A stretch of 64,000 nucleotides of DNA from Lachnospiraceae bacterium (GTDB lineage: Bacteria > Bacillota > Clostridia > Lachnospirales > Lachnospiraceae), in NCBI GenBank assembly GCA_024692905.1, contig JAILLY010000066.1, positions 2,912 through 66,911 of the forward strand. The letters run 5' to 3'. The position numbers and the translations under genes were made by a program. Below the pieces are notes generated by a model. The model was given only the letters and a program-made list of their open reading frames with translations. It was not told the DNA's origin and made no database searches. Every line of letters begins with the position of its first letter. The first letter of the stretch is position 1. This document shows positions 7,704 through 59,684 of this stretch, piece after piece.

Positions 7704-8324
7704 TTATAATGTTATGTCAAGCAGTACTTTGTCAAGGACACGCTCTGTCTTGTCGATCGGAAAGCCCTTTCCATACATGTATGAAAGCAGTTTTCTCCTT
7801 GAAACCTCATCCCATCCGGTAACCCTTGCGATCCGTTTGCGTATGAGTTTTTCGATAAGTTCCTCCTCTTCTCCCTCATCAGAAAACTCGCTCATAACCA
7901 TGGATATGACCCTGTCATCAATTCCCTTTTCCTTAAGCTTGCTTATAAGTTCTCTCCTGCTCCTTGTTAAGATATGAGCCGTCACATAATCCCTTGCATA
8001 CCTTACGTCGTCGACATAGCCGTAGGACATCACGTACCCGACCGCATCGTCTATGATATCATCGGGATAAAGCGACTCCTTAAGCTTCCGCCTTAACATG
8101 AACTCGGTATAATCCCTTGACTTAAGGAGATTCATTGCCCTTAACCTGGCCCTGCGGCCCAAAACTTCCGTCCTTATATCGTTTATGATATCATCAGGCA
8201 GTTCTTCGCCCTCTATAATGCCATATTCAGACAATTCGCCCTTGTATAAAACAAAGGCGAATTGATCATTTAAATATATTTTATACTTACCCTTACGGTA
8301 TTCCGTGATACCGGTCACAGTCAT
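7704..8324 (-). CDS. recX: Recombination regulator RecX
   Basis: 206 aa immediately downstream of recA. Repeated helical RecX-type modules (YLLRR.., RKLKEKG). Confidence 0.8.
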   Translation of the reverse strand: MTVTGITEYRKGKYKIYLNDQFAFVLYKGELSEYGIIEGEELPDDIINDIRTEVLGRRARLRAMNLLKSRDYTEFMLRRKLKESLYPDDIIDDAVGYVMSYGYVDDVRYARDYVTAHILTRSRRELISKLKEKGIDDRVISMVMSEFSDEGEEEELIEKLIRKRIARVTGWDEVSRRKLLSYMYGKGFPIDKTERVLDKVLLDITL

Positions 8325-8338
8325 GCGGAAAGCCTCCG

Positions 8339-9373
8339 TTATTCTTCTCCGGGGTCATCAGTTCCTTCACCGGCGGAACCCGTCAGACCGTAATGCTCCC
8401 TTACTTTGGCTTCAACTTCCTTGAGTATCTCGGGATTCTGCTCGAAATAAAGCTTGGTATTCTCGCGGCCCTGACCTATCTTCTGACCGTTATATGAATA
8501 CCATGCGCCCGACTTGACGATAACATCGATATTGGCTGCAAGATCTACTATATCGCCTATCATAGAGATACCCTTACCGAACATGATATCAAACTCGGCT
8601 TCCTTGAAAGGAGGCGCTATCTTGTTCTTGACGACCTTGACACGCGTGCGGTTTCCGATGACTTCACCGCCCTGTTTGAGCGCCTCTATCCTTCTGACAT
8701 CAAGCCTGACCGAAGAATAAAACTTGAGTGCACGGCCGCCCGTGGTTGTCTCGGGATTTCCGAACATCACGCCAACCTTCTCTCTGAGCTGGTTAATGAA
8801 TACAACGGTACAATTGGACTTGGATATTACCGCTGTAAGCTTGCGCAGCGCCTGGGACATGAGACGGGCCTGAAGGCCGACATGGGAATCGCCCATATCA
8901 CCGTCTATTTCAGCCTTCGGGACAAGTGCCGCAACGGAATCCACAACAATTATGTCAACCGCTCCCGACCTTACCATGGTTTCGGTGATCTCAAGAGCCT
9001 GCTCACCGTTATCAGGCTGGGAAATATACAGATTATCTATGTCGACTCCGATATTCCTTGCATAAACCGGATCAAGTGCATGTTCCGCATCTATGAAACC
9101 GGCTATTCCTCCCCTTTTCTGGACTTCGGCTATCATATGAAGGGTAACGGTGGTCTTACCGGAAGACTCAGGTCCATAGATCTCAATGATCCTCCCCTTC
9201 GGGATGCCGCCGAGTCCGAGTGCGATATCAAGGCTGAGCGAACCGGTAGGGATCGTCTCAACATTCATGTGATTGGCCGTATCGCCAAGTTTCATTACCG
9301 AACCCTTGCCGTACTCCTTCTCTATCTTGGATAATGCTACTTCCAATGCCTTAAGCTTTTCTTCTCTTTCCAT
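8339..9373 (-). CDS. recA: Recombinase RecA
   Basis: Walker [10 protein letters not shown] and typical RecA sequence throughout. Start trimmed to MEREEK (ATG 9373, AAGGAGA upstream). The longer ORF-track start lies inside the promoter. Confidence 0.97.
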
Positions 9374-9439
9374 ATTATTCTCCTTTACACTCCCGCAGGA
9401 TCCCCTCCCGGATATTTTGATAAAATGAACGCATTGCCA

Positions 9440-9453
9440 CGAACAAGCGTTCG
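9440..9453 (-). promoter_or_regulatory. LexA (DinR) SOS box, Cheo-box type
   Basis: CGAACAAGCGTTCG is a perfect palindromic match to Firmicute CGAAC-N4-GTTCG. It sits between the recA -10 and the RBS. Confidence 0.8.
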
Positions 9454-9464
9454 CTACGAGATAC

Positions 9465-9493
9465 AATATAAAACATCTGTTCGGGTTTGTCAA
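9465..9493 (-). promoter_or_regulatory. recA promoter with a second, imperfect SOS box in the spacer
   Basis: Minus strand TTGACA (9493-9488), 17 nt spacer, TATATT (9470-9465). The spacer plus -10 contains CGAACAGATGTTTT (9483-9470). Confidence 0.65.
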
Positions 9494-9655
9494 GCGGTTT
9501 TTTGAATTTAGTGGTATTTTGATACCGGCAATACATACCTGCCGATCTTAACGTCAATAATACTACGGGATTTGGAATAAAATGCGACGTAAACGGGACA
9601 GATGAGCCAAATTCCCGCAATGTCACGATTCCTTACATAAGATCCGTACATAAGA

Positions 9656-10492
9656 TCAGGAGAAATTCTTCTCGCTGTAATACTCGAGGACACACATCCT
9701 GAGAAGTGCCAGAGCCGCAGATGCCGCCTGAAGACGTATCTGCATCCTGTCTCCGGTAAAATTGTACTTTACGACCTTGGTCTTGCCGCAAACGCTGCAT
9801 CCAATGTATACAAGGCCCACCGGCTTATCGTCACTTCCGCCGTCGGGTCCGGCGATCCCGGTCGTCGAGAGGGTCACATTGGTCTTTGATACTGCCGCAC
9901 AGCCCTTGACCATTTCTTTTGCGGTCTGTTCACTTACCGCACCGTATTTTAAGAGAGTACTCTTTTTAACGCCAAGCCTTGCTCTCTTGGCCTTGTTTGC
10001 ATATGTAATGAAGCCTTCCTTGAAAACCTCGGAAGCTCCGGGAACATCGATTATCCTTGAAGCCACCATACCGCCGGTACAGGATTCGCATGTCGAGAGG
10101 ACCAGCGAATTGGTACGCAGCAGATCTACCACGGATTCCTCCAAAGTGGTATCTTTATCAGTCGAATATATATTGAGGCCGAACCTGTTCTTTATCTCCT
10201 TTACCACGGACTTGCCCGTCTTCTTGGCGGAACTGGTCCCATCGCCGGTTGCTTCAAGCATAATGTGGACTTCACCGGGTATCGTTTCAATGGTAAGTTT
10301 GGGGTTTTCAAGCACAGTCAGATCGCTTATCTTTTCACGCACCTGATCCTCGGTCATCTGGCATATCCTGAAATACTTGACAAAACGCCCGTCATCTTCC
10401 GGTAACGTTTCGTCGTATGAATCTTCACCGGAAACAGCCGTCTTATCGGGTACTATCTTTGATTCTTTAACCTTATCCTTGTCCTTTGACAT
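9656..10492 (-). CDS. CinA-family protein with C-terminal PncC (NMN amidohydrolase) domain; N-terminal MoCF domain absent
   Basis: C-terminal CESCTGGMVASRIIDVPGASEVF...GAVSEQTAKEM...TGIAGPDGG matches CinA_C. Sits in the conserved pgsA-cinA-recA position. Only 278 aa. Confidence 0.8.
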   Translation of the reverse strand: MSKDKDKVKESKIVPDKTAVSGEDSYDETLPEDDGRFVKYFRICQMTEDQVREKISDLTVLENPKLTIETIPGEVHIMLEATGDGTSSAKKTGKSVVKEIKNRFGLNIYSTDKDTTLEESVVDLLRTNSLVLSTCESCTGGMVASRIIDVPGASEVFKEGFITYANKAKRARLGVKKSTLLKYGAVSEQTAKEMVKGCAAVSKTNVTLSTTGIAGPDGGSDDKPVGLVYIGCSVCGKTKVVKYNFTGDRMQIRLQAASAALALLRMCVLEYYSEKNFS

Positions 10493-43375: not shown

Positions 43376-44659
43376 TTATCTTGCGGCAGCAAATCCTTTC
43401 TCAAGATCGGCTATGATATCATCTATGTGCTCCGTTCCGATGGAAAGACGTATCGTATTCTGCTTAATACCCTGATCGAGAAGTTCTTCGTCATTAAGCT
43501 GCGAATGGGTGGTTGAAGCGGGATGTATAACAAGACTCTTCACATCGGCAACGTTCGCAAGAAGTGAGAATATCTCGAGGTTGTCGATAAACTTCCATGC
43601 TTCATCCTTGCCGCCCTTTATCTCGAAAGTGAAGATGGACGCTCCGCCGTTGGGGAAATATCTCTCATAAAGCGCATGATCCGGATGATCTGAAAGCGAA
43701 GGATGATTTACCTTGACAACCTGAGGATGTTTGCTCAAATACTCAACAACCTTCTTAGTATTCTCCGCATGGCGCTCAAGCCTGAGGGACAGGGTCTCAA
43801 CTCCCTGAAGGAGAAGGAATGCGTTGAACGGTGAGATCGTTGCGCCGGTATCCCTTAAAAGAATGGCACGGATATAGGTTACGAATGCGGCAGGGCCGAC
43901 AACATCATAGAATGATACTCCGTGATAGCTGGGATTCGGTGCTGCGATATTGGGATACTTGCCGCTTGCCTTCCAGTCAAACTTTCCGGATTCAACTATT
44001 ATGCCGCCCAGTGTGGTACCGTGGCCGCCGATGAACTTGGTCGCCGAATGGACAACGATATCCGCTCCGTGCTCGATCGGACGGATAAGATAAGGTGTTC
44101 CGAAAGTATTGTCTATAACGAGCGGAAGCCCGTGACTGTGTGCGATCTTTGCTATCGCATCTATGTCGGGTATATCACTGTTGGGATTGCCGAGAGTCTC
44201 AAGATAGATCGCCCTTGTGTCATCCTGAATCGCGTCTTCGACTTCCTTAAGATCGTGTGCATCAACAAAAGTCGTGGTGATGCCATACTGGGGAAGCGTA
44301 TGTGCGAAAAGGTTATATGTTCCGCCGTAGATCGTCTTCTGGGCTACTATATGTCCGCCGTTTGCGGCAAGTGCCTCGATCGTATAGGTTATGGCAGCCG
44401 CTCCCGAAGCAAGTGCGAGTGCTGCGCTTCCGCCTTCAAGTGCCGCAAGCCTCTTCTCGAGGACATCCTGCGTGGTGTTCGTAAGCCTTCCGTAGATATT
44501 TCCCGCATCTGCAAGACCGAAACGGTCCGCTGCGTGTTTGCTGTTGTGGAATACATATGAAGTCGTCTGGTAGATGGGTACCGCACGCGAATCGGTTGCG
44601 GGATCCGCCTCTTCCTGTCCTACATGTAACTGAAGTGTTTCAAATCTGTAATCGCTCAT
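43376..44659 (-). CDS. metY: O-acetylhomoserine sulfhydrylase (aminocarboxypropyltransferase)
   Basis: 427 aa Cys/Met-metabolism PLP enzyme ([12 protein letters not shown] contains the PLP lysine; N-terminal [11 protein letters not shown]). Confidence 0.9.
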
Positions 44660-50927: not shown

Positions 50928-51179
50928 TTAATCCCCTACCTTTTTAATGTATAACTCAAACGTTCCGTCCTCATTATCAACGAGCTTAAGTACCTCGTGG
51001 CCCTCCTCCTTAACGCTCCTTGGCACGTTATTGACCGGTTCACCGTCATTTAAGTGGACCTGAAGTACCTGACCCTCATCAAGCTCATCAAGAGCGACCT
51101 TGGTCTTTACAAAGGTCACGGGACAGTTCACATCCGTAATATCAACAGTATCATCAACTTTAATATCTATCTCAGCCAT
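50928..51179 (-). CDS. TusA/SirA-like sulfurtransferase
   Basis: 83 aa from ATG 51179 (AAGGAGG 5 nt upstream). Conserved Cys in VNCPVTF and a two-layer alpha/beta pattern typical of TusA. Confidence 0.7.
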   Translation of the reverse strand: MAEIDIKVDDTVDITDVNCPVTFVKTKVALDELDEGQVLQVHLNDGEPVNNVPRSVKEEGHEVLKLVDNEDGTFELYIKKVGD

Positions 51180-51223
51180 TTTTTCCTCCTTTTGCGGGTC
51201 CCCGCAAAATACTTGTTTTATCA

Positions 51224-51652
51224 TCAGATCACGATCAGCTCTTCTTTTCGTACAGTCTTCTCTCCTTCTGCTTTCTCAATATGAAATGCATTAAGAACGG
51301 GGTTTTCTTCCTCCATGAGCGAAAGGATCAGATAACTCGCGCTGCTGTCATTGGCCAGCCGCTTATCTTCCTCTGACGGACGCGAGGGTGACGCCGGATG
51401 GGAGTGCCAGTTTCCGAGCGGTTTAAGGGCTCTTGCTCTCATATCCTTTACCGCATTGAGCTGTTCATGCGGATCGATCGTAAAATGCTCGCTGGTATGA
51501 TCGGTATTTGTCAGTATGTATACCTTACATATTTCCCGCACGCCATCCCTGCGATCGACTCCCGCTATCAGTCCGCAGGCTTCGTTCGGGCTTTCCTTAA
51601 GAGAGTGTTCATATATCATTTCAAAATCGCTGCGCTTTATCGTTATCTTCAT
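51224..51652 (-). CDS. JAMM/MPN+ metalloprotease (Mov34 family), copy 2
   Basis: NEACG glutamate motif and HSHPASPSRPSEED (HxHx7Sx2D). Start at ATG 51652 with GGAG upstream. Confidence 0.85.
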   Translation of the reverse strand: MKITIKRSDFEMIYEHSLKESPNEACGLIAGVDRRDGVREICKVYILTNTDHTSEHFTIDPHEQLNAVKDMRARALKPLGNWHSHPASPSRPSEEDKRLANDSSASYLILSLMEEENPVLNAFHIEKAEGEKTVRKEELIVI

Positions 51653-51706
51653 ATATTCTCCGTTCAACTATCATATGTGGTTCCAGCAGCAGCATCCAAA
51701 GAAAGA

Positions 51707-52522
51707 TCATTTGGACTGCTTCAGTTCACACTCCGCCTGCTCATAATCGATAAGCTCCGTTATCGTCGGTTCATCCGAACATACGGCACATCCCTTTCCG
51801 CGGGGAGGAAGCTTTATCTTATGAAATTCCATCTTAAGCGCATCATAAGTCAGCAGGTATCCCGAAAGCAGTTCGCCCGTACCCGTTATATACTTTACCG
51901 CCTCCATTGCCTGAAGCGAACCGATCACGCCGCCCATGGCTCCGATGACTCCGGCCTGTTTGCAGGTTGGGACCGCATCCTTTGGGGGCGGATTCTTAAA
52001 TATACATCTGTAGCAGGGGCTCTCGCCGGGGATTATCGTGGTGAGCTGCCCCTTGAACCGTATGATGCCGGCATGTGATAAGGGCTTTTTTTCCATCACA
52101 CATGCATCGTTGATAAGAAATTTTGCGGGGAAATTATCTGTCCCGTCCAGGATAAAATCATAATCCCTTATAAGCTCGCGTATGTTTGTACTGTTAACGA
52201 ACTGATAATAGGTATTCACAATCACATCCGGATTGATCGCACGCATGGTCTCTGCGGCTGATTCTACCTTCTTCTTCCCTATATCGGGTGTCGTATGTAT
52301 GACCTGCCTCTGAAGATTGGACAGATCGACAACATCTGCATCCGCTATGCCTATGGTTCCCACGCCGGCAGCGGCAAGATAAAGTGCGGCCGGTGCTCCG
52401 AGTCCTCCGGCACCTATTATGAGGACTTTTGCATTGAGCAGTTTTTTCTGCCCTTTTACGCCGATCTCCTTTAATATGATATGTCTTGAGTAACGCTCCA
52501 GCTGTTCATTTGTAAAAGCCAT
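51707..52522 (-). CDS. ThiF/MoeB/HesA-family E1-like adenylyltransferase
   Basis: RYSRHIIL..., GAGGLGAPAALYLAAAGVG nucleotide loop, CYRC and CAVC zinc pairs. TAATG overlap with the ThiS-like gene. Confidence 0.88.
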   Translation of the reverse strand: MAFTNEQLERYSRHIILKEIGVKGQKKLLNAKVLIIGAGGLGAPAALYLAAAGVGTIGIADADVVDLSNLQRQVIHTTPDIGKKKVESAAETMRAINPDVIVNTYYQFVNSTNIRELIRDYDFILDGTDNFPAKFLINDACVMEKKPLSHAGIIRFKGQLTTIIPGESPCYRCIFKNPPPKDAVPTCKQAGVIGAMGGVIGSLQAMEAVKYITGTGELLSGYLLTYDALKMEFHKIKLPPRGKGCAVCSDEPTITELIDYEQAECELKQSK

Positions 52523-52731
52523 TAAAGCCTTCCTCCTCCCATGAAGTATAAGAATTCGACCTCATCACCTTCGTTAAGAGCATGACTGTCAAAACTGCCT
52601 TTATCGATGAACTCCTCATTTACCGATACAGTCACATATTCCGGAGTTTCCACGTTTTCCTGCTCAATAAGCGCAGCGACCGTGATCCCGTCCGCAACTT
52701 CTTTTTTCTCTCCAGCTATAGTGATCTTCAT
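52522..52731 (-). CDS. ThiS/MoaD-like ubiquitin-fold sulfur-carrier protein with C-terminal extension (…FMGGGRL)
   Basis: 69 aa with a beta-grasp pattern (MKITIAGEKKEV...GDEVEFLYFMGG). The diglycine is followed by 2-3 extra residues. Strong RBS AGGAGGG. Confidence 0.8.
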   Translation of the reverse strand: MKITIAGEKKEVADGITVAALIEQENVETPEYVTVSVNEEFIDKGSFDSHALNEGDEVEFLYFMGGGRL

Positions 52732-52759: not shown

Positions 52760-53770
52760 TTAAATTATGTAGTACCACTCATCGCTCTGGCTTAATTCTT
52801 CACTTCTTATCTCGTTTTTGTCTGTCCGGTATTCCATCTCAAGATTCTTCATGCTGACCCTTGTGTTCGCATCGATGGAACAGGTGATGAATGCATTTCC
52901 TCCAATGACGGCATTCTCACCGATGACAGTCTCTCCTCCGAGGATTGATGCACCGGCATAGATCGTAACGTTATCGCATATGGTCGGATGTCTTTTCCTG
53001 CCGGAAAGTCTCTGCCCGCCTCTTGTGGAAAGAGCTCCTATCGTGACACCCTGATAAATCTTGACATTTCTGCCTATGACCGCCGTCTCGCCTATAACTA
53101 TCCCCGTACCGTGATCTATGAAGAAATATTTATCGATGGCCGCCCCCGGATGTATGTCTATGCCCGTCTTACTGTGCGCATATTCCGTCATGAGTCTCGG
53201 AAGAACGGGCACCTGTTCAAGATACAGCTCATGGGCCAGCCTGTACACCGTGATCGCCATCAGGCCGGGATATGCAAGAATGATCTCTTCATAACATCCC
53301 GCTGCCGGGTCCCCGTCATAAGCAGCCGAAAGATCCGTCTCTATATACTCACGTATCTTTGGTATCCTGGCAAAGAATGCCTTGCAGATACGGTAACTTT
53401 CCCGCTTCCTTTCATCATCGGTAAGGGTTCCCCTTTTTCTGCAGTAATCAAGGGCCAGATACACCTGTTTGCTCAGATGATAAAATATATCCTCGATGAT
53501 GACGGCAAAACTGTTCCTTGGATTATATATCTTGTAAGAGCGGTCCCTGAAATAACCCGGAAATATTATCCTGAAAAGATTTCTTATAAGTTCATGAACC
53601 TCTGCTTTGTCAGGTTTGTTATATATATTGACCTCATCGATATGTTTTTTTCCTTCAAAATCCTCAAATATGTTTTTGACGATAAGATCTATCTCTTCTT
53701 CCCTTATTATCTCATTCACCGGTATTCTCCTTATATCCTCATGTACTGCCGGATCCATCCGGCAGCACAT
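52760..53770 (-). CDS. Serine O-acetyltransferase, long form (about 150-aa N-terminal domain), encapsulin-operon associated
   Basis: C-terminal hexapeptide SAT core (GIDIHPGAAIDKYFFIDHGTGIVIGETAVIG). 336 aa. The N-terminus reads MCCRM. Confidence 0.85.
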   Translation of the reverse strand: MCCRMDPAVHEDIRRIPVNEIIREEEIDLIVKNIFEDFEGKKHIDEVNIYNKPDKAEVHELIRNLFRIIFPGYFRDRSYKIYNPRNSFAVIIEDIFYHLSKQVYLALDYCRKRGTLTDDERKRESYRICKAFFARIPKIREYIETDLSAAYDGDPAAGCYEEIILAYPGLMAITVYRLAHELYLEQVPVLPRLMTEYAHSKTGIDIHPGAAIDKYFFIDHGTGIVIGETAVIGRNVKIYQGVTIGALSTRGGQRLSGRKRHPTICDNVTIYAGASILGGETVIGENAVIGGNAFITCSIDANTRVSMKNLEMEYRTDKNEIRSEELSQSDEWYYII

Positions 53771-53782
53771 GAAGGCATTACT

Positions 53783-55504
53783 TTAAGCAAATGTCTTTAA
53801 TACTTTAACCAGTGCATCAATGTCATCCGGAGAATTATAAAGCGCGATAGTCGGCCTTACCGAACTTTCATATCCGAAACGGCGCAGAACCGGCTGCGCA
53901 CAGTGATGTCCCGTGCGAACAGCTATCCCGTAGCTGTCAAGCCTCTTTCCGACCTCTTCATCCGAATATCCGTCAAGCTTGAATGACAATGCCGATGACT
54001 TGTTGAGTGCGGTCCCTATAAGATGAAGTCCCTTTACCATTTTCATCTCTTTCATGGCATATGTTAAAAGTTCATGCTCCCAGCGGTAAACGCAGGGCAT
54101 GCCGATATCGGTAAGATAGGAAAGCGCCGCGCCAAGACCGACAGCATCGGCTATGCTTCCCGTTCCGGCTTCGAATTTGTTCGGGGCGGGATTATATATC
54201 GTCCTTTCAAAAGTCACATCCGCGATCATATTTCCGCCGCCGTGATAAGGCCTGGCTGCCTCGAGCAGTTCCTTCTTTCCGTAAACCGCTCCTATGCCCG
54301 TCGGAGCAAAGATCTTATGTCCGGAGAATACAAAGAAATCCGCATCAAGCGCCGATACATTCACCGGTATATGTGCCACCGACTGGGCTCCGTCAATGAG
54401 TATGCGTACTCCGTGCCTGTGTGCGATTGCAATGAGCTCCTCAACCGGAGTGACTGTTCCAAGCACATTGGACACATGGGTCACCGCAACAAATCTGGTC
54501 CGCTTTGTGAAAAGCTTCTCATACTCATGAAGTATGAGCTGACCGGTCTCATCGCAGGGTATAACCTTTATCACCGCACCCGTTTCCTGGGCTATCAGCT
54601 GCCAGGGAACTATGTTCGCATGGTGTTCAAGGATCGAGACGATGATCTCGTCTCCGGGTTCGAGCATCGGCTTTACATAAGCATTTGCCACGAGGTTTAT
54701 ACCTTCGGTCGTGCCTCGCACGAAGATGATCTCATCAGATGAAGGCGCACCGATAAAATCGCGCACGATATCCCTTGCTTTTTCGTATGCATCCGTCGAT
54801 CTTGCCGCCAGAGTATGGGCACCCCTGTGCACATTGCTGTTCTCATGCCCATAATAATACGAGAGTCTGTCTATAACGGCCTTTGGACGCTGCGTGGTCG
54901 CTCCGTTATCGAGCCATATCAGCGGATTGCCGTTTATCTGCTCTTTGAGGATTGGAAAATCATCCCTGATCTGGGCAAGCGACTTGCTGCCTATCCTTAT
55001 CTGGTCGTTCCTCGACGAAGCGGGGGCTGCCTTTGAGGCATCGCCGCTGACACTGTCACCTCCAAGCGATGTGGGGACATCTATCCTGCGGCCTTTTTCA
55101 TACGCCTGCGCCTGAGACATGACTGTCGGGGAATAACTCACGCTCTTTTCACCGGTAAGCACGGGTATATCCCCCATACCGGGGATCATTTCCGCCTCCG
55201 GAGCACTTACCGCCTCAACCGTCTGAAGATACTGATCGGTGTATCCCCCGCCGTAAGCGAAAGGGTGCTCCCAATCAAACGGTTCTGTCACCGGTGTGCT
55301 CAAGCCCGGGATTTCTCCGGCCGTTCCGGCATACGTGCCGGTCGAAGGTATATTCACTTCGGGAACGGATGCTGCCGGTATATCTGTCTCGGGAATACCG
55401 TATACACCTTCCGTAAGATCCGGAAACATCTCATTTGCAAGAATACTGAGTTCTCCCGCGCTTAAGATGCCGTCAGGATTATCAATCGTAATCATAATAT
55501 TCAC
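53783..55504 (-). CDS. SufS/CsdA-type cysteine desulfurase with about 170-aa disordered N-terminal extension (predicted encapsulin cargo)
   Basis: The catalytic part has HHANIVPWQ, SGHK (PLP lysine) and RTGHHCAQP (active-site Cys). The ORF-track start is GTG 55504 and an ATG at 55495 is also possible. It overlaps the encapsulin 3' end. Confidence 0.88.
   Translation of the reverse strand: MNIMITIDNPDGILSAGELSILANEMFPDLTEGVYGIPETDIPAASVPEVNIPSTGTYAGTAGEIPGLSTPVTEPFDWEHPFAYGGGYTDQYLQTVEAVSAPEAEMIPGMGDIPVLTGEKSVSYSPTVMSQAQAYEKGRRIDVPTSLGGDSVSGDASKAAPASSRNDQIRIGSKSLAQIRDDFPILKEQINGNPLIWLDNGATTQRPKAVIDRLSYYYGHENSNVHRGAHTLAARSTDAYEKARDIVRDFIGAPSSDEIIFVRGTTEGINLVANAYVKPMLEPGDEIIVSILEHHANIVPWQLIAQETGAVIKVIPCDETGQLILHEYEKLFTKRTRFVAVTHVSNVLGTVTPVEELIAIAHRHGVRILIDGAQSVAHIPVNVSALDADFFVFSGHKIFAPTGIGAVYGKKELLEAARPYHGGGNMIADVTFERTIYNPAPNKFEAGTGSIADAVGLGAALSYLTDIGMPCVYRWEHELLTYAMKEMKMVKGLHLIGTALNKSSALSFKLDGYSDEEVGKRLDSYGIAVRTGHHCAQPVLRRFGYESSVRPTIALYNSPDDIDALVKVLKTFA
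54995..55504 (-). other. Predicted intrinsically disordered cargo-loading domain of the desulfurase
   Basis: Low-complexity Pro/Gly/Ser/Thr-rich region. It contains GELSILANEMFPDL, which resembles the LARLANEFF-type loading motif reported for family 2A encapsulin cargo. Confidence 0.55.
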
Positions 55505-56438
55505 CTACTTCTACATCCTCAAGCACCGCTATCGCATCATCCGCAAGTATCGCAGCCGAGCAGTACAGAGATAATAAGTAAGATGCCACTCCCTTATCAT
55601 CGATGCCTCTGAAACGCACCGACAGTCCTCTTGAATGTTCGTTCTTGAGTCCTGCCTGGAATAATCCGACAACACCCCTCTTTGCTTCACCCGTACGGAT
55701 GAGAAGGATGTTGGTCTTTCCGCTTTCGGACTTGGGATTCTTAAGTCCGTCAACCAGGAGCTTGTCCGTAGGGATCACAGGGATCCCCCTCCATGTAAGG
55801 AAGTTTCCTCCTGCAATGTTTACAACTACAGGCGGTACACCCCTCTTCGTGCACTCTCTCTCAAATGCTGCGATAGCCCTGGGGTGAGCAAGGAAAAATG
55901 AGGGCTCCTTCCATACCTTGGTTATGAGTTCATCAAGATCATCGGGCGTAGGTGCACCGTTGCGTGTCTGGATCCTCTGGGAATCAGGCACGTTCTTCAA
56001 AAGGCCGTAATCATCATTATTGATCAGCTGGCTCTCCTGACGCTCCCTTAAAGACTCGATCGCAAGTCCGAGCTGCTCCTGGACCTGATCGTAGGGTACA
56101 CTGTAAACATCCTCCACGGATGTGTTCACATTGATGATCGTTGAGATCGAATTAAGGACATATTCGCGGGGTTTCGTCTCATACTCAACATATCCCTGCG
56201 GAATTATGTCTGACTTTTTCGTCTGGGAGCAGAGCACGTCGAGCGGGGTTTCGCCTTCAACCACCCTGTTCACCCTGTAGATACCGGTCTCCAGCCCCTT
56301 GAACTCAAGGAATTTGGTGAGCCATCTGGGGGTGAGTGCTCCAAACTGGGGCTTGGTCTTGGTAATGTTCGCAAGATTATAGGCCGCCTGAGAATCAAGC
56401 GCGTTGATCCCCTCTTTCTTAACTGTTTCGTTTGCCAT
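55482..56438 (-). CDS. Family 2A encapsulin shell protein (SrpI-like, HK97 fold)
   Basis: 318 aa from ATG 56438 (GGAGG 7 nt upstream). Motifs I recall from SrpI-type shells: LTPRWLTKFL, GIYRVNRV, KPREYVLNSISTIINV, ERQESQLIN, TRNGAPTPDDLDELITKVWKEPSFFLAHPRAIAAFERECTKRGVPP, LLSLYCSAAILADDAIAVL. No cNMP-binding insertion. Confidence 0.8.
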   Translation of the reverse strand: MANETVKKEGINALDSQAAYNLANITKTKPQFGALTPRWLTKFLEFKGLETGIYRVNRVVEGETPLDVLCSQTKKSDIIPQGYVEYETKPREYVLNSISTIINVNTSVEDVYSVPYDQVQEQLGLAIESLRERQESQLINNDDYGLLKNVPDSQRIQTRNGAPTPDDLDELITKVWKEPSFFLAHPRAIAAFERECTKRGVPPVVVNIAGGNFLTWRGIPVIPTDKLLVDGLKNPKSESGKTNILLIRTGEAKRGVVGLFQAGLKNEHSRGLSVRFRGIDDKGVASYLLSLYCSAAILADDAIAVLEDVEVGEYYDYD

Positions 56439-56518
56439 TTCAGTTCCTCCTGTCTTATGATTGATCATTTTCTATTAGATAGTCTGCTCCTGACAGACGT
56501 ATCCATCGTAAATATATA

Positions 56519-57976
56519 TCAGAGCCATGCGCCCTCGTGCGAAAACATGATATCCTTCATCGCCTCTATACCGCCCTTTAAGTTGTACATCGGGCCGTTA
56601 TACCCCGCTTCCCTTAACGTATTGATCGCGAGGATGCTTCGTTTGCCCTCCCTGCAGACAAAGACCGTATCCTTATCCGGATCAAGTTCATCCTTTCTCC
56701 TTGCAAGCTGGCCTATCGGGATCACTATCGCATCCGGGAAACGCATTATCGAGCGCTCGTGCGGTTCACGTACATCGATTATGGTCATGGGATCCTTGTC
56801 CTCTATTCGCCTGGCGAGTTCCTCCGGAGTGAATCCTTCGACAGGGATCTCATCTTCCGCAGTTTTAAGATGGCAGAATTCCTCGTAATCAAAATCCTCA
56901 ACCCTGAATATCGAGGGATCTGCCCCGCATATCGGACACTTACGGTCCTTCTTCACCTTAACGATCCTGGATCCGAGATACAGGCTGTCGATCGTAAGCA
57001 GCCTGCCGTCAAGATGTTCTCCTATCCCGATGATCAGTTTAAGTGCTTCATTTGCTGCGATGCTCCCGATGATTCCGGGCAACGGACTTATCGTGCCGCC
57101 CTCCGCACATGTCGGGACAAGCCCCGGCTCAGGCGGTTCGGGAAACAGGCATCTTAAACAGGGACCTCCGTTAAGATTGAAGATGCCGACCCTGCCTTCA
57201 TACTGGTATATCGCCCCGAATACCAGGGGTATGCCCAGAAGTGCACAGGCATCGTTTATAAGATATCTGGACCTGTGATCGCCGGTGCAGTCTATCACAA
57301 GATCGTAGCCGTCGATCATGGATACTATGTTGTCGGCATTGATCCTTTCATTCTCCGATTCAAAATTTATGTTCCTGTTGGTGTTCCTGACTGTATCCCG
57401 TGCCGATGCCACCCTGGGACGCTTAACATCACGGGCACTGTGTATTACCTGACTCTGAAGGTCTTCAAGAGAAACATCATTATCATCGACCACTTTTATC
57501 GTTCCGACACCTGCTGCCGCAAGATACTGGATAACGGGCGAACCCAGCGCCCCCGCCCCCATGACAACGACTCTTGACGCTTTGATCCTCTTCTGGCCCT
57601 TGACTCCTATCTCTCTTAGCAGAAGATGTTTGCCGAAACGTTCAACCTCCTGATCGTCAAGACCGACTTCCTTCCTCCGTTCATCCGGTATGAGATTATC
57701 CGAAGGCGCACCTCCTGCGATCGACGGTAGCAGGAGTACCTCATCATCGGGTTTTAGTTTTCTGTACCACTGATCGGGTTCACTCCTGTCCTCATCCCCG
57801 ACATATAACCTTATAAAGCTGTTAAGTCCTCCGTCTGCATTGAATATCACCTTTTTTGAATCCGGATATTCATCGGTCAGGAAATTGAGGATACTTTTAA
57901 TATCATCCCCCGAAACTTCCACGAAACTGTTCCTTCCGAAAAATCCCCTTAAAGTAGCCGATATATAAACCTTCAT
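56519..57976 (-). CDS. Triple fusion: MoaD/ThiS-like Ubl domain (ends ...LLLPSIAGG) plus ThiF/MoeB E1 adenylyltransferase plus C-terminal rhodanese
   Basis: Residues 1-92 show a beta-grasp pattern with a diglycine at the junction. E1 core GAGALGSPVIQYLAAAGVG with CLRC/CPIC. Rhodanese active loop VCREGKRS. Confidence 0.85.
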   Translation of the reverse strand: MKVYISATLRGFFGRNSFVEVSGDDIKSILNFLTDEYPDSKKVIFNADGGLNSFIRLYVGDEDRSEPDQWYRKLKPDDEVLLLPSIAGGAPSDNLIPDERRKEVGLDDQEVERFGKHLLLREIGVKGQKRIKASRVVVMGAGALGSPVIQYLAAAGVGTIKVVDDNDVSLEDLQSQVIHSARDVKRPRVASARDTVRNTNRNINFESENERINADNIVSMIDGYDLVIDCTGDHRSRYLINDACALLGIPLVFGAIYQYEGRVGIFNLNGGPCLRCLFPEPPEPGLVPTCAEGGTISPLPGIIGSIAANEALKLIIGIGEHLDGRLLTIDSLYLGSRIVKVKKDRKCPICGADPSIFRVEDFDYEEFCHLKTAEDEIPVEGFTPEELARRIEDKDPMTIIDVREPHERSIMRFPDAIVIPIGQLARRKDELDPDKDTVFVCREGKRSILAINTLREAGYNGPMYNLKGGIEAMKDIMFSHEGAWL

Positions 57977-58432
57977 TTACTTCTGTCCTCCAATTATGAT
58001 CACCGGCCGCACCGCCTTTGTACAGGTATCCTGTCCGGACTTATCCGGGAGCATTCTTATATAACCGGCCGTCTCCGTACAGCCCTTCTCATCCACCGAT
58101 ACGATCACATATATCAAACCGGGTACAGCATGCTTAATATCTTCATCCGAGCATATTGCGGGCTTGTCCGGATGTGAATGATAAAAGCCAAGCAGATCCA
58201 TCCCGGCTGTTTCCGCCTCGTTCTCTATCTGCCGGAGCTGACCGGCATCTATGCGGTAGCCCTCAGCCGCACTTATTCCGGAAAGTGTATTCCGAGCGGG
58301 CCTTACCATATTAATCCGCCGTGTGTCCTTATACCCAAGCAGTGCTCCGCATCCCTCGCAGGGATATGCACGGCTTAAATGCTCTCTCATGAGTTCATAT
58401 TCATCATTGTCAAACCAAACAACATCTTCCAT
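57977..58432 (-). CDS. JAMM/MPN+ metalloprotease (Mov34 family), copy 1
   Basis: PCEGCG glutamate motif and HSHPDKPAICSDED (HxHx7Sx2D). Confidence 0.85.
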   Translation of the reverse strand: MEDVVWFDNDEYELMREHLSRAYPCEGCGALLGYKDTRRINMVRPARNTLSGISAAEGYRIDAGQLRQIENEAETAGMDLLGFYHSHPDKPAICSDEDIKHAVPGLIYVIVSVDEKGCTETAGYIRMLPDKSGQDTCTKAVRPVIIIGGQK

Positions 58433-58451: not shown

Positions 58452-59684
58452 CTACCGGGAGACCGACTTTACAGCCTGCACAAAATCTTCCACCAGATCC
58501 TCTGCATCCTCTATGCCCACACTGACCCTTACGGTATCTTCATATACACCTGCTGCATTCATCTCTTCCACGGCTGTCTTATTGTACAGTGTCGATGCGG
58601 GATGTATGACCAGCGTACGAAGATCGCCGATGTTACTTGCTATCATCGCATATTTCAGCGAATCGATGATCTTAAATGCCCTTTCCTTAGACCCGGCCCG
58701 GAAGCTTAATATACCGCCCCCAAGGCCTCTGAGTTCCTCTTTGGCGATCTTATTGTACGGATGATCCGGGAGAGTCAGATAATTGACCTTAATCCCTTCA
58801 ATCTCATAAAGTGCACGGGCAAGTTTATCGGCGTTATCACAGATCCTTTCCATCCTAAGTCCGAGCGTATCGGTTCCTATATAGTTAAGGAATGCGTTCA
58901 TCGGGGCCATGCAGCCGCCGATATTCTCCCATATATCGTTACGAAGCCTTACGGAAAAGGCCATCGGTCCGTATTTCTTATAATCCGAAAGTGCAGTATG
59001 CTTATCCGCATCCCACTTAAACTTACCGCCGTCGACTATGATGCCGCCGATCGAATTACCTCCCCCGTTTAAATATTTGGAAGTCGAATGAATGACTGCA
59101 TCCGCCCCCATCGACAGAGACCTGGCCAGATATGGGGTTGCCGTCGTTGCGTCCACAAAAAGCGGGATCCCGGCTTCATGGGCCGCCGCAGCCGTCCCGG
59201 CCACATCCATGACTTTCAGTGAGGGATTGGCGATCAGCTCACCGAATACCACCTTAGTCCTTTCGTTTATGAACGGCCTTATCGAGTCGCCGTTCATCTC
59301 AGCGGTATAAACGGTATGGATACCAAGCTTTTCAAGATCATGTAACAGTTCTATTGTCCCACCGTACAGACCGCTGCAGGTTATTATCTCATCACCGCTT
59401 CCACATACCGCAAGCAATGCAGACGCGATGGCAGACATCCCGCTGCTGCAGCAGACAGCACCCACGCCTCCTTCAAGTTCGCTTATCCTCTGCTCGAAGG
59501 CGGCTATCGTAGGATTTCCGATGCGCGTATATGCATACCCCATGCTCTTATGTGCAAAAACCTTCTCAAGTTCCTCCATACTCTCGTACCTGAAAGCACT
59601 GACCTGAGAGATGGGCGGGAGCATCTCACGCGATGCATATCCCCGGGATGTTTTTCCGTGTAAAAGCTTCGTATTAAACTGCAT
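58452..59684 (-). CDS. O-acetylhomoserine/O-acetylserine sulfhydrylase-like PLP enzyme (second MetY/CGS-family paralogue)
   Basis: 410 aa, Cys/Met-metabolism PLP family (HSTSKYLNGGGNS contains the PLP lysine). Confidence 0.85.
   Translation of the reverse strand: MQFNTKLLHGKTSRGYASREMLPPISQVSAFRYESMEELEKVFAHKSMGYAYTRIGNPTIAAFEQRISELEGGVGAVCCSSGMSAIASALLAVCGSGDEIITCSGLYGGTIELLHDLEKLGIHTVYTAEMNGDSIRPFINERTKVVFGELIANPSLKVMDVAGTAAAAHEAGIPLFVDATTATPYLARSLSMGADAVIHSTSKYLNGGGNSIGGIIVDGGKFKWDADKHTALSDYKKYGPMAFSVRLRNDIWENIGGCMAPMNAFLNYIGTDTLGLRMERICDNADKLARALYEIEGIKVNYLTLPDHPYNKIAKEELRGLGGGILSFRAGSKERAFKIIDSLKYAMIASNIGDLRTLVIHPASTLYNKTAVEEMNAAGVYEDTVRVSVGIEDAEDLVEDFVQAVKSVSR

Follow-up and report, generated by a model that had tools for sequence, protein, structure and literature searches.

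The stretch analysed here, hereafter the window, comprises 64,000 nucleotides of contig JAILLY010000066.1 from a Lachnospiraceae bacterium (assembly GCA_024692905.1, positions 2,912 to 66,911 of the forward strand). One open reading frame (ORF) on its minus strand encodes a ubiquitin-like (Ubl) domain, an E1-type activating enzyme and a rhodanese domain in a single polypeptide, with a diglycine (GG) inside the chain at the end of the first domain. It is preceded by the gene for a JAMM protease, named JAMM-1 below, and followed by the gene for an encapsulin shell protein. The features of the fusion and of the protease gene are as follows.

56519..57976, minus strand: Ubl-E1-rhodanese fusion ORF, 485 aa, 53.8 kDa.
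57710..57976, minus strand: predicted CysO/SAMP1-like beta-grasp sulfur-carrier domain, residues 1-89 (AlphaFold2 (AF2), Foldseek, profile against PDB sequences).
57710..57715, minus strand: codons of the G88-G89 diglycine; the predicted scissile bond joins G89 to A90.
57662..57709, minus strand: linker, residues 90-105, predicted by AF2 to be disordered.
56924..57661, minus strand: MoeB/ThiF-type E1 adenylation domain, residues 106-351 (end-to-end alignment with E. coli MoeB).
56555..56830, minus strand: rhodanese domain, residues 383-474 (Pfam Rhodanese); the codon of Cys441 is at 56654-56656.
57977..58432, minus strand: JAMM-1, a JAMM/MPN+ zinc metalloprotease of 151 aa (Pfam Prok-JAB, motif).
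57986..57991, minus strand: GGAGGA Shine-Dalgarno sequence for the fusion gene, inside the 3' coding end of JAMM-1 (sequence).

A preliminary description of this DNA had proposed a Ubl-E1-rhodanese triple fusion with an internal diglycine, in which the Ubl part is followed by a linker, a ThiF/MoeB adenylation domain and a rhodanese domain with the loop CREGKRS. This architecture is confirmed as one 485-aa ORF with domains matched by Pfam and NCBIfam. Residues 116-348 correspond to Pfam ThiF (E 4.8e-69, 232.6 bits) and residues 383-474 to Pfam Rhodanese (E 2.8e-15, 57 bits), the active-site loop CREGKRS (C441-REGKR-S) occupying residues 441-447. The diglycine is followed by A90-P91, and 396 residues of the encoded polypeptide lie beyond G89. 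The size and architecture are common to the best 120 listed 90%-identity clusters (483-490 aa, mostly 485), all of which also keep the junction IAGG(A/S)P. An assembly or frameshift artefact was rejected, since a frame of about 485 aa recurs in these 120 clusters and in 70 genome loci.

The N-terminal domain is, judged by its sequence and its modelled fold, a beta-grasp sulfur carrier of the CysO family. The AF2 model of residues 1-95 has a predicted local distance difference test (pLDDT) score of 89, with residues 88-95 disordered. The top Foldseek match in the PDB is M. tuberculosis CysO (3dwg_C, TM 0.80/0.82, rmsd 2.1 A), followed by SAMP1, a MoaD-related protein, Urm1 and MoaD. The assignment of the domain to the MoaD/ThiS class thus stands, while the length of 92 residues given for it earlier is replaced by 89, as the domain ends at G89. 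Residues 1-89 are covered by the whole length of the NCBIfam SAMP1 profile (E 3.3e-9) and of archaeal MoaD profiles, with G89 as the last matched residue, and the Ubl profile aligns end to end with the PDB sequences 4n6e_B (E 3.9e-23) and CysO 3dwg_C (E 3.4e-22). The free C-terminal PAVAGG of solved CysO-family carriers falls on PSIAGG of the fusion (A87-G88-G89). In an alignment of 12 Ubl sequences from fused and split orthologues (28-58% identity), the invariant columns are only L9, P84, G88 and G89. MoaX, HcyS-Ala and QbsE are recognised carriers that are likewise encoded with a masked GG.

The junction was compared across 70 fused loci from a scan of species-representative genomes (59-78% identity), the alignment containing 71 fusions. 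The GG is kept in 71 of 71, and the expectation that orthologues would conserve it is borne out down to 28% Ubl identity. The consensus of the 70 loci is P-x-[IV]-A-G-G, with A, S or V at P1' (56, 10 and 4 loci, respectively) and P at P2' in 67. The GG scores 1.00 for conservation, P1'-P2' 0.88 and the next four residues (92-95) 0.52, the minimum of the whole protein; by domain the values are Ubl 0.61, E1 0.79 and rhodanese 0.84. The length of the linker varies from 16 to 24 residues, the spacing from the GG to the E1 start (residue 106) is about 14 residues, and residues 86-126 have a pLDDT below 50 in the full-length AF2 model. The modelled linker is consistent with a flexible tether.

The catalytic apparatus of both enzymatic domains is intact. 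The E1 part aligns from residue 106 end to end with residues 4-248 of E. coli MoeB (1jw9_B, E 3e-49). The glycines G140, G142 and G145 of the GxGxxG nucleotide loop, the catalytic aspartate D229, C290 and C273/C276/C347 are invariant in the 71 fusions; C350 is kept in 70 and the arginine finger R113 in 69 of them. Two CxxC zinc motifs of the MoeB type are formed by C273/C276 and C347/C350; such motifs separate MoeB(R) from MoeZ(R) proteins, as stated in the introduction of Voss et al. C441 and R446 of the rhodanese CxxGxR loop are kept in all 71 fusions. The fusion scores below the NCBIfam equivalog cut-offs of both MoeB (NF006444, 350.8 against 449) and MoeZ (NF005902, 334.3 against 647). By sequence, its E1-rhodanese portion shares the superfamily and architecture of MoeBR, MoeZR, MOCS3 and Uba4, and it appears to be an equivalog of neither MoeB nor MoeZ.

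The fusion gene directly follows the JAMM gene, as first described. The TAA stop codon of JAMM-1 (57977-57979) abuts the ATG of the fusion (57974-57976), which indicates that the two genes are translationally coupled in the window. A JAMM gene lies directly upstream of the fusion on the same strand in 69 of 69 related loci, with gaps mostly of -10 to +40 nt. JAMM-1 is matched by Pfam Prok-JAB (E 2.8e-18, 66.3 bits against a cut-off of 25) and has a complete zinc/catalytic motif, E26...H85-x-H87-x7-S95-xx-D98; HxHx7SxxD is intact in 70 of 70 orthologues. Among solved structures, its best relatives are 2kcq, 2kks and PfJAMM1 (5ld9). On fold and motif it matches the Ubl-associated JAMM proteins of prokaryotes, such as Mec+, HcyD, QbsD and HvJAMM1. 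From these features JAMM-1 is predicted to mature the fusion by cutting after G89, and it is probably also the hydrolase that frees an amino-acid product.

Adenylation by enzymes of the MoeB/ThiF/E1 type requires a free C-terminal carboxylate on the carrier (see also PMC4443979), and the fusion as encoded must therefore be cut before it can serve as its own substrate. Taking the sequences, the models and the analogous systems together, we consider it probable that the carrier is a pro-protein which JAMM-1 would release after G89 and its former partner would then thiocarboxylate, to make homocysteine or cysteine. What the sequences show is which domains are present, where the GG lies and that it does not vary, that the catalytic residues are intact, and which genes lie nearby; the cleavage we infer. 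In maturation, JAMM-1, translated from the same message just ahead of the fusion, would hydrolyse the G89-A90 peptide bond and yield, in a 1:1 ratio, a carrier of about 10 kDa with a free Gly-Gly end and an E1-rhodanese of about 43.8 kDa. The E1 domain would then adenylate the glycine at the carrier's C-terminus.

The predicted need for trimming also extends to an unfused relative. The expected search for orthologues with a separate Ubl gene led to an operon of genome G098, in which the order is JAMM, Ubl (98 aa), E1-rhodanese, shell and desulfurase. The free Ubl of this operon ends with VPAIAGG and a seven-residue tail, FGGAFAL, and its TGA stop overlaps the ATG of the E1 gene (ATGA). Since seven residues follow its GG, the unfused carrier too is, judged by its sequence, a pro-protein whose C-terminus must be trimmed.

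A second Ubl module is located in the window at 50928-52731 on the minus strand. It consists of a ThiS-like protein ending with FMGGG-RL, an E1 without rhodanese, a second JAMM protein (JAMM-2) and a TusA/SirA-like protein, and matches operon type 4e of Iyer et al. 2006 (PMC1779556). The module is present in 31 of 41 long loci. The ThiS of about 40 related loci ends with GGG and one or two further residues (R, C, AL, AR and others), and on this sequence pattern the module-2 ThiS is classed as a masked carrier of the HcyS/QbsE type.

The second module bears on the alternative that the fusion is never cleaved. The Ubl would then be a permanent structural, regulatory or docking domain, for instance for the neighbouring pyridoxal-phosphate (PLP) enzyme, the cysteine desulfurase or the encapsulin shell, and the E1-rhodanese would activate another free carrier, such as the module-2 ThiS. 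Indeed, a solo ThiS is present 4 kb downstream in the window, and a non-carrier role was given by Iyer et al. 2006 to the Campylobacter-type Ubl-ThiF, which co-occurs with solo ThiS (PMC1779556). A relative from the window's own clade, P0122 (GCA_016648615.1, 558 aa), retains the Ubl domain without the GG and without a JAB gene. However, an E1, a JAMM and a TusA-like partner of its own accompany the solo ThiS, and the second module is missing from 10 of the 41 long loci that still have the fusion. Docking leaves the invariance of the GG, the A/S-P pattern and the variable, disordered linker unexplained, and in the split orthologue this domain is a free-standing protein of 98 aa with a tail of the trimmed type. 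A permanently uncleaved fusion is therefore regarded as unlikely.

The protease responsible for release is a separate question. Cleavage after the GG might be performed by another protease or be autocatalytic, JAMM-1 being only an adduct hydrolase of the Mec+/HcyD kind. A JAB protein accompanies CysO pathways even where the carrier has a free GG, as with Mec+ and CysO of M. tuberculosis (PMC3227635), and the enzyme that cuts MoaX is not named in the sources covered. Against this, the GG-Xaa peptide bond is chemically the same as the adduct bond, and experiments show linear Ubl fusions being cut by JAMM proteins right behind the GG. Both in vitro and in vivo, HvJAMM1 severs an engineered linear SAMP1-MoaE fusion at precisely this point, activity depending on the cut (PMC4443979); DRJAMM cleaves the natural MoaD-MoaE fusion of D. 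radiodurans, and MoaX of M. tuberculosis is active only if cleaved (PMC8832034, PMC4326299). The window genome possesses two JAB genes in total, one beside each masked Ubl, and the GG-less P0122 lacks one.

The contexts of some distant fusions are relevant to the same question. At L130 (1389-4223, GCA_964523735.1), a JAB gene and a Ubl-E1-rhodanese gene (IAGG followed by AP) precede ThiG; by its gene order this fused carrier apparently serves thiazole synthesis, which places a JAB protein in a thiamine context. At L012 (7001-8905, GCA_001922985.1), one 634-aa polypeptide has the order JAB-Ubl-rhodanese-E1, with ISGG followed by S at the Ubl end. This polypeptide ends a cluster of YcaO, lanthipeptide-dehydratase-C and ATP-binding cassette (ABC) exporter genes, and may be the sulfur donor for a thioamidated ribosomally synthesised and post-translationally modified peptide (RiPP). 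No carrier-amino-acid adduct is expected beside ThiG or in a RiPP-like cluster, so processing of the precursor is the best explanation of a JAB protein there. As a negative control, the canonical molybdenum-cofactor operon of Chryseobacterium (L126) has a free MoaD ending with SGG and a stop codon, and no JAB gene. Release by a protease other than JAMM-1 thus seems quite improbable. Apparent fusions in Chryseobacterium and Sphingobacterium, found as tblastn matches starting at residue 20 or 73, were rejected as read-through of a stop codon.

The remaining genes of the operon that concern the proposed pathway are listed below.

55482..56468, minus strand: shell protein of a family 2A encapsulin, encoded directly behind the fusion (NF041162, 491.5 bits against a cut-off of 380).
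53783..55504, minus strand: SufS-type cysteine desulfurase (CyD), the encapsulin cargo (TIGR01979, 532.6, over the cut-off).
52760..53770, minus strand: serine O-acetyltransferase (SAT; TIGR01172, E 2.7e-48).
58452..59684, minus strand: divergent O-acetylhomoserine sulfhydrylase paralogue (TIGR01326, 388 bits, under the cut-off of 495).

The carrier, E1, JAMM and PLP sulfhydrylase genes are all contiguous in the window. The shell gene is directly downstream of the fusion in 60 of 60 loci and the desulfurase cargo gene follows the shell in 56 of 56. CyD has an N-terminal extension of about 170 residues and reaches 774.6 with the cargo model NF041166, just under the cut-off of 800. The divergent sulfhydrylase is directly upstream of the JAMM gene in 35 of 62 loci. 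It retains the PLP lysine and is 33% identical to a canonical MetY encoded elsewhere in the window (43376-44659, minus strand, 635 bits); on its sequence, it may be specialised for a protein thiocarboxylate.

CyD is the probable source of sulfur for the rhodanese domain. In the sequence of steps that we propose, a persulfide on Cys441 would be charged by a cysteine desulfurase, either CyD two genes downstream or a NifS upstream, and would turn the acyl-adenylate of the carrier into a protein thiocarboxylate. The thiocarboxylate would serve as the sulfide donor of a PLP enzyme, the best candidate being the divergent sulfhydrylase beside JAMM-1, with homocysteine as the product; in other lineages a cysteine-synthase-like enzyme would take the place of the sulfhydrylase. 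Both the donor and the acceptor, like the assignment of the sulfhydrylase to module 1 rather than module 2, are inferred. Finally, JAMM-1 would hydrolyse the amide between the carrier and the amino acid, with the same bond chemistry as in maturation, and the carrier would be recycled. Published precedents exist for each of these steps. Molybdopterin and thiazole (thiamine) synthesis were rejected as clients, because the window genome contains no MoaE and no credible copy of ThiG, showing only marginal partial ThiG-like matches.

The neighbouring genes bear likewise on a possible main function in protein conjugation of the SAMP/Urm1 kind, with the E1-rhodanese attaching the Ubl to lysines and JAMM-1 removing it. 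The best NCBIfam names are those of SAMP1, the SAMP-activating E1 UbaA and desampylase, and Urm1 and the SAMPs of archaea act both in conjugation and in sulfur transfer (PMC4443979, PMC9574740). Yet all the conserved neighbours are enzymes of sulfur metabolism, the closest relative in structure and sequence, CysO, is a pure sulfur carrier, the invariant rhodanese cysteine favours thiocarboxylate formation, and the annotated genes of the cluster include no E2-like gene. Conjugation as the main function appears very unlikely.

Several points weigh against the proposed release and use of the carrier. P0122 has lost the second glycine of the diglycine (AMAG followed by ES), and its E1 is preceded by a Cys-rich insert of 75 residues (CC..C..CC..CC..C); upstream there is no JAB gene, and a tricorn-type protease gene lies on the opposite strand. 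The persistence of a fused Ubl without GG in this protein makes a non-carrier role possible in some lineages. Three fused loci have no recognisable adjacent JAB gene, namely P0124 (on a short contig of 3.3 kb), the second copy of G173, and P0131 (with an upstream 127-aa gene without a Pfam match). The JAB adjacency is in any case partly expected, because JAMM proteins of the Mec+/HcyD type release the amino-acid product in thiocarboxylate pathways, and alone it is no proof of precursor processing. The sulfhydrylase is a doubtful acceptor, being adjacent in only 35 of 62 loci, and may instead work with the second Ubl module of the island. With a pLDDT of 65, the full-length AF2 model is too uncertain to inform on docking between the Ubl and the E1 or on engagement of the junction by JAMM-1. 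A search for proteomic or informative read data on cleavage returned only low-share DNA contigs from gut metagenomes and no RNA runs.

The operon context is that of desulfurase encapsulins, which are described with rhodanese, SAT, shell and CyD genes, SAT being the usual accessory gene (PMC10836720). By gene order, the fusion fills the rhodanese slot of such an operon. The texts of the encapsulin papers PMC10836720 and PMC8346489 contained no mention of ThiF, MoeB, JAB or Ubl-like partners. A universal partnership of the fusion with family 2A shells in Clostridia was rejected, as four other Clostridia loci consist of shell and CyD only. The route by which sulfur leaves desulfurase encapsulins is a stated open question (PMC10836720), and we suggest tentatively that the JAMM/Ubl-E1-rhodanese pair may be a dedicated exit route for it. 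The rhodanese domain would then be the 'co-regulated rhodanese' proposed in the field, a shell-specific acceptor taking sulfane sulfur from the encapsulated desulfurase or from its stored sulfur. The sulfur would be loaded straight onto a protein thiocarboxylate and pass through the specialised sulfhydrylase to homocysteine, and cleavage of the pro-protein by JAMM-1 would act as the on-switch. If this is true, sulfur from stores or from cysteine would reach methionine in rumen anaerobes by a protein-channelled, sulfide-free route. For the encapsulin field, a rhodanese partner within a complete thiocarboxylate-forming machine represents a concrete and testable downstream route in this rumen/gut operon clade. 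The encapsulin link is more interesting than the fusion itself and is the part likeliest to open an experiment.

Most of the 70 fused loci belong to rumen and gut Lachnospiraceae, including Pseudobutyrivibrio xylanivorans; others come from metagenome-assembled genomes of Fibrobacter, Treponema and Planctomycetes. Of the 251 genera sampled from the family to which the window belongs, only 5 carry the fusion, and the locus is a sporadic and probably mobile island. The same JAMM/fusion/encapsulin/CyD/SAT island occurs at 59-68% identity in Fibrobacter (L077, L091, L120), Treponema (L106-L108, L111, L112) and Planctomycetes (L092, L096, L101, L116), a divergence about equal to that within Lachnospiraceae. 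This pattern of sequence identity suggests horizontal transfer of the island among rumen bacteria, binning error being also possible. In Pseudobutyrivibrio sp. UC1225 (L005, GCA_900115215.1), genes for a sulfate ABC transporter, an adenosine phosphosulfate (APS)-reductase-like flavin adenine dinucleotide (FAD) protein, ferredoxin and CysD/CysN precede the JAMM-fusion-encapsulin core, and early tetrapyrrole genes (HemA/HemB/HemL-like) follow it. By its gene content, the island in this genome is tied to assimilatory sulfate reduction. The second fusion, encapsulin and CyD locus of G173, which is without JAMM, lies at L045 (5170-6228, minus strand; 8285-9805, plus strand), with a gene for a three-domain rhodanese-TusA-DsrE protein nearby.

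An exhaustive search of 50%-identity representatives added at least 10 further fused clusters, down to 34% identity, that keep AGG at the junction. Distant fusions of 34-44% identity with other sulfur acceptors retain the GG and the adjacent JAB gene. Cysteine-synthase-like PALP enzymes adjoin the fusion in three distant lineages, with the order Rrf2-PALP-JAB-fusion in P0123. Permuted architectures comprise Ubl-Rhd-E1, Ubl-E1, JAB-Ubl-Rhd-E1 (P0147) and JAB-Ubl-E1-Rhd (P0193, 619 aa, with ATSGG followed by M), Rhd denoting rhodanese. A quick maximum-likelihood tree of 143 E1 domains, from the deep branches of which no reading is taken, places the window protein in a clade with P0121, P0122 and P0124 (SH-aLRT 96). 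Because the fused state needs eight changes on this tree, the fusion probably arose, or was lost, repeatedly.

The preliminary description had presented a self-contained polyprotein processed by a JAMM as a neat minimal ubiquitin-like system. The interpretation is supported and the idea is less new than this implied, since Ubl-E1 fusions are catalogued and JAMM cleavage of Ubl-MoaE fusions is demonstrated. Every single component, the Ubl-E1 architecture and the maturation of masked or fused carriers by JAMM proteins are already known, and a specialist would find the result neat rather than startling. In the literature on CysO-MoeZ, Ubl-E1, MoaD-MoeB and ThiS-ThiF fusions, this system was not found described. 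Neither a CysO-like carrier fused to an E1-rhodanese with an invariant internal GG, nor the obligate upstream JAMM, nor the strict coupling to a family 2A desulfurase encapsulin, was found in the literature covered, a coverage that leaves outside the 2009 E1 survey of Burroughs et al. If the proposed maturation is true, the locus would be a natural example in which a bacterial carrier with the ubiquitin fold starts out joined to its own E1, as a precursor, and is set free by a JAMM protease. The presence of the carrier, activator, sulfurtransferase and protease in 1.9 kb is convenient for reconstitution.

The CysO/CysM/Mec+/MoeZR pathway of M. tuberculosis (PMC3227635; 3DWG, 3DWM), in which MoeZR thiocarboxylates CysO and Mec+ hydrolyses CysO-Cys, shares with the window the carrier family, an activator composed of an E1 and a C-terminal rhodanese, a JAMM gene beside the carrier and a PLP enzyme as sulfur acceptor. 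The order Rrf2-PALP-JAB-fusion of P0123 mirrors mec-cysO-cysM. However, CysO is a free 93-aa protein ending with GG and moeZ is unlinked, whereas the carrier of the window is fused and its GG is internal. The adjacent PLP enzyme of the window is an O-acetylhomoserine-sulfhydrylase paralogue and not CysM, and its E1, unlike MoeZR, has both CxxC zinc motifs.

Fusions of Ubl proteins to MoaE (PMC4443979, PMC8832034, PMC4326299) resemble the window protein in that a carrier is joined through GG to a partner enzyme, and they are inactive until cut exactly after the GG by a JAMM protein. Their partner is a downstream user of the thiocarboxylate, whereas that of the window is the upstream activator, an E1-rhodanese. 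They serve molybdopterin synthesis, while the window genome is without MoaE.

A Ubl placed N-terminal to an E1-like enzyme is also found in the Campylobacter-type Ubl-ThiF (PMC1779556) and in Ubl-E1-TBP of Thaumarchaeota and bacteria (Makarova & Koonin 2010, PMC2948915). The description of the Campylobacter-type Ubl sets it apart from ThiS, places it in a thiamine operon together with solo ThiS and ThiG and without JAB or rhodanese, and assigns it a non-carrier role (PMC1779556). The fusion does not answer to this description, having an adjacent JAB gene and a fused rhodanese in a genome with no credible ThiG. Compared with the catalogued Ubl-E1 fusions, the family of the window has a CysO-like Ubl, an invariant GG, a C-terminal rhodanese and a preceding JAB gene; neither processing nor an encapsulin context is described in PMC1779556 or PMC2948915. 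The family 2A desulfurase encapsulin operons (PMC10836720, PMC8346489) share the shell, the CyD cargo, SAT and a rhodanese function encoded directly upstream of the shell, but their free rhodanese is replaced here by a rhodanese within a Ubl/E1 machine with its own JAMM.

The Wolinella system of HcyS-Ala, HcyD, HcyF and MetY is reportedly similar in that a masked GG is exposed by a JAMM protein, an O-acetylhomoserine sulfhydrylase uses the thiocarboxylate and the JAMM protein frees homocysteine. HcyD of Wolinella succinogenes is said to remove the C-terminal Ala of HcyS and to release homocysteine, as reported by Krishnamoorthy & Begley in JACS in 2011. The mask is reportedly a single Ala and the E1 without rhodanese, whereas the mask in the window is the whole 396-residue activating enzyme. 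The layout said to occur in Wolinella corresponds to module 2 of the window, with ThiS-GGG-RL, E1, JAMM-2 and a TusA-like protein.

Among eukaryotic systems, Uba4/MOCS3 has the same E1-rhodanese architecture, and polyubiquitin, Ub-L40 and Ub-S27a are likewise linear fusions from which the modifier is freed after Gly-Gly. In the ubiquitin precursors the modifier is joined to a ribosomal protein or to a further ubiquitin, most of the proteases are cysteine deubiquitinases, and the modifier serves protein modification, not sulfur transfer. If the carrier of the window is indeed released by JAMM-1, its synthesis parallels that of eukaryotic ubiquitin, which is in every case synthesised in fused form and then released by deubiquitinases.

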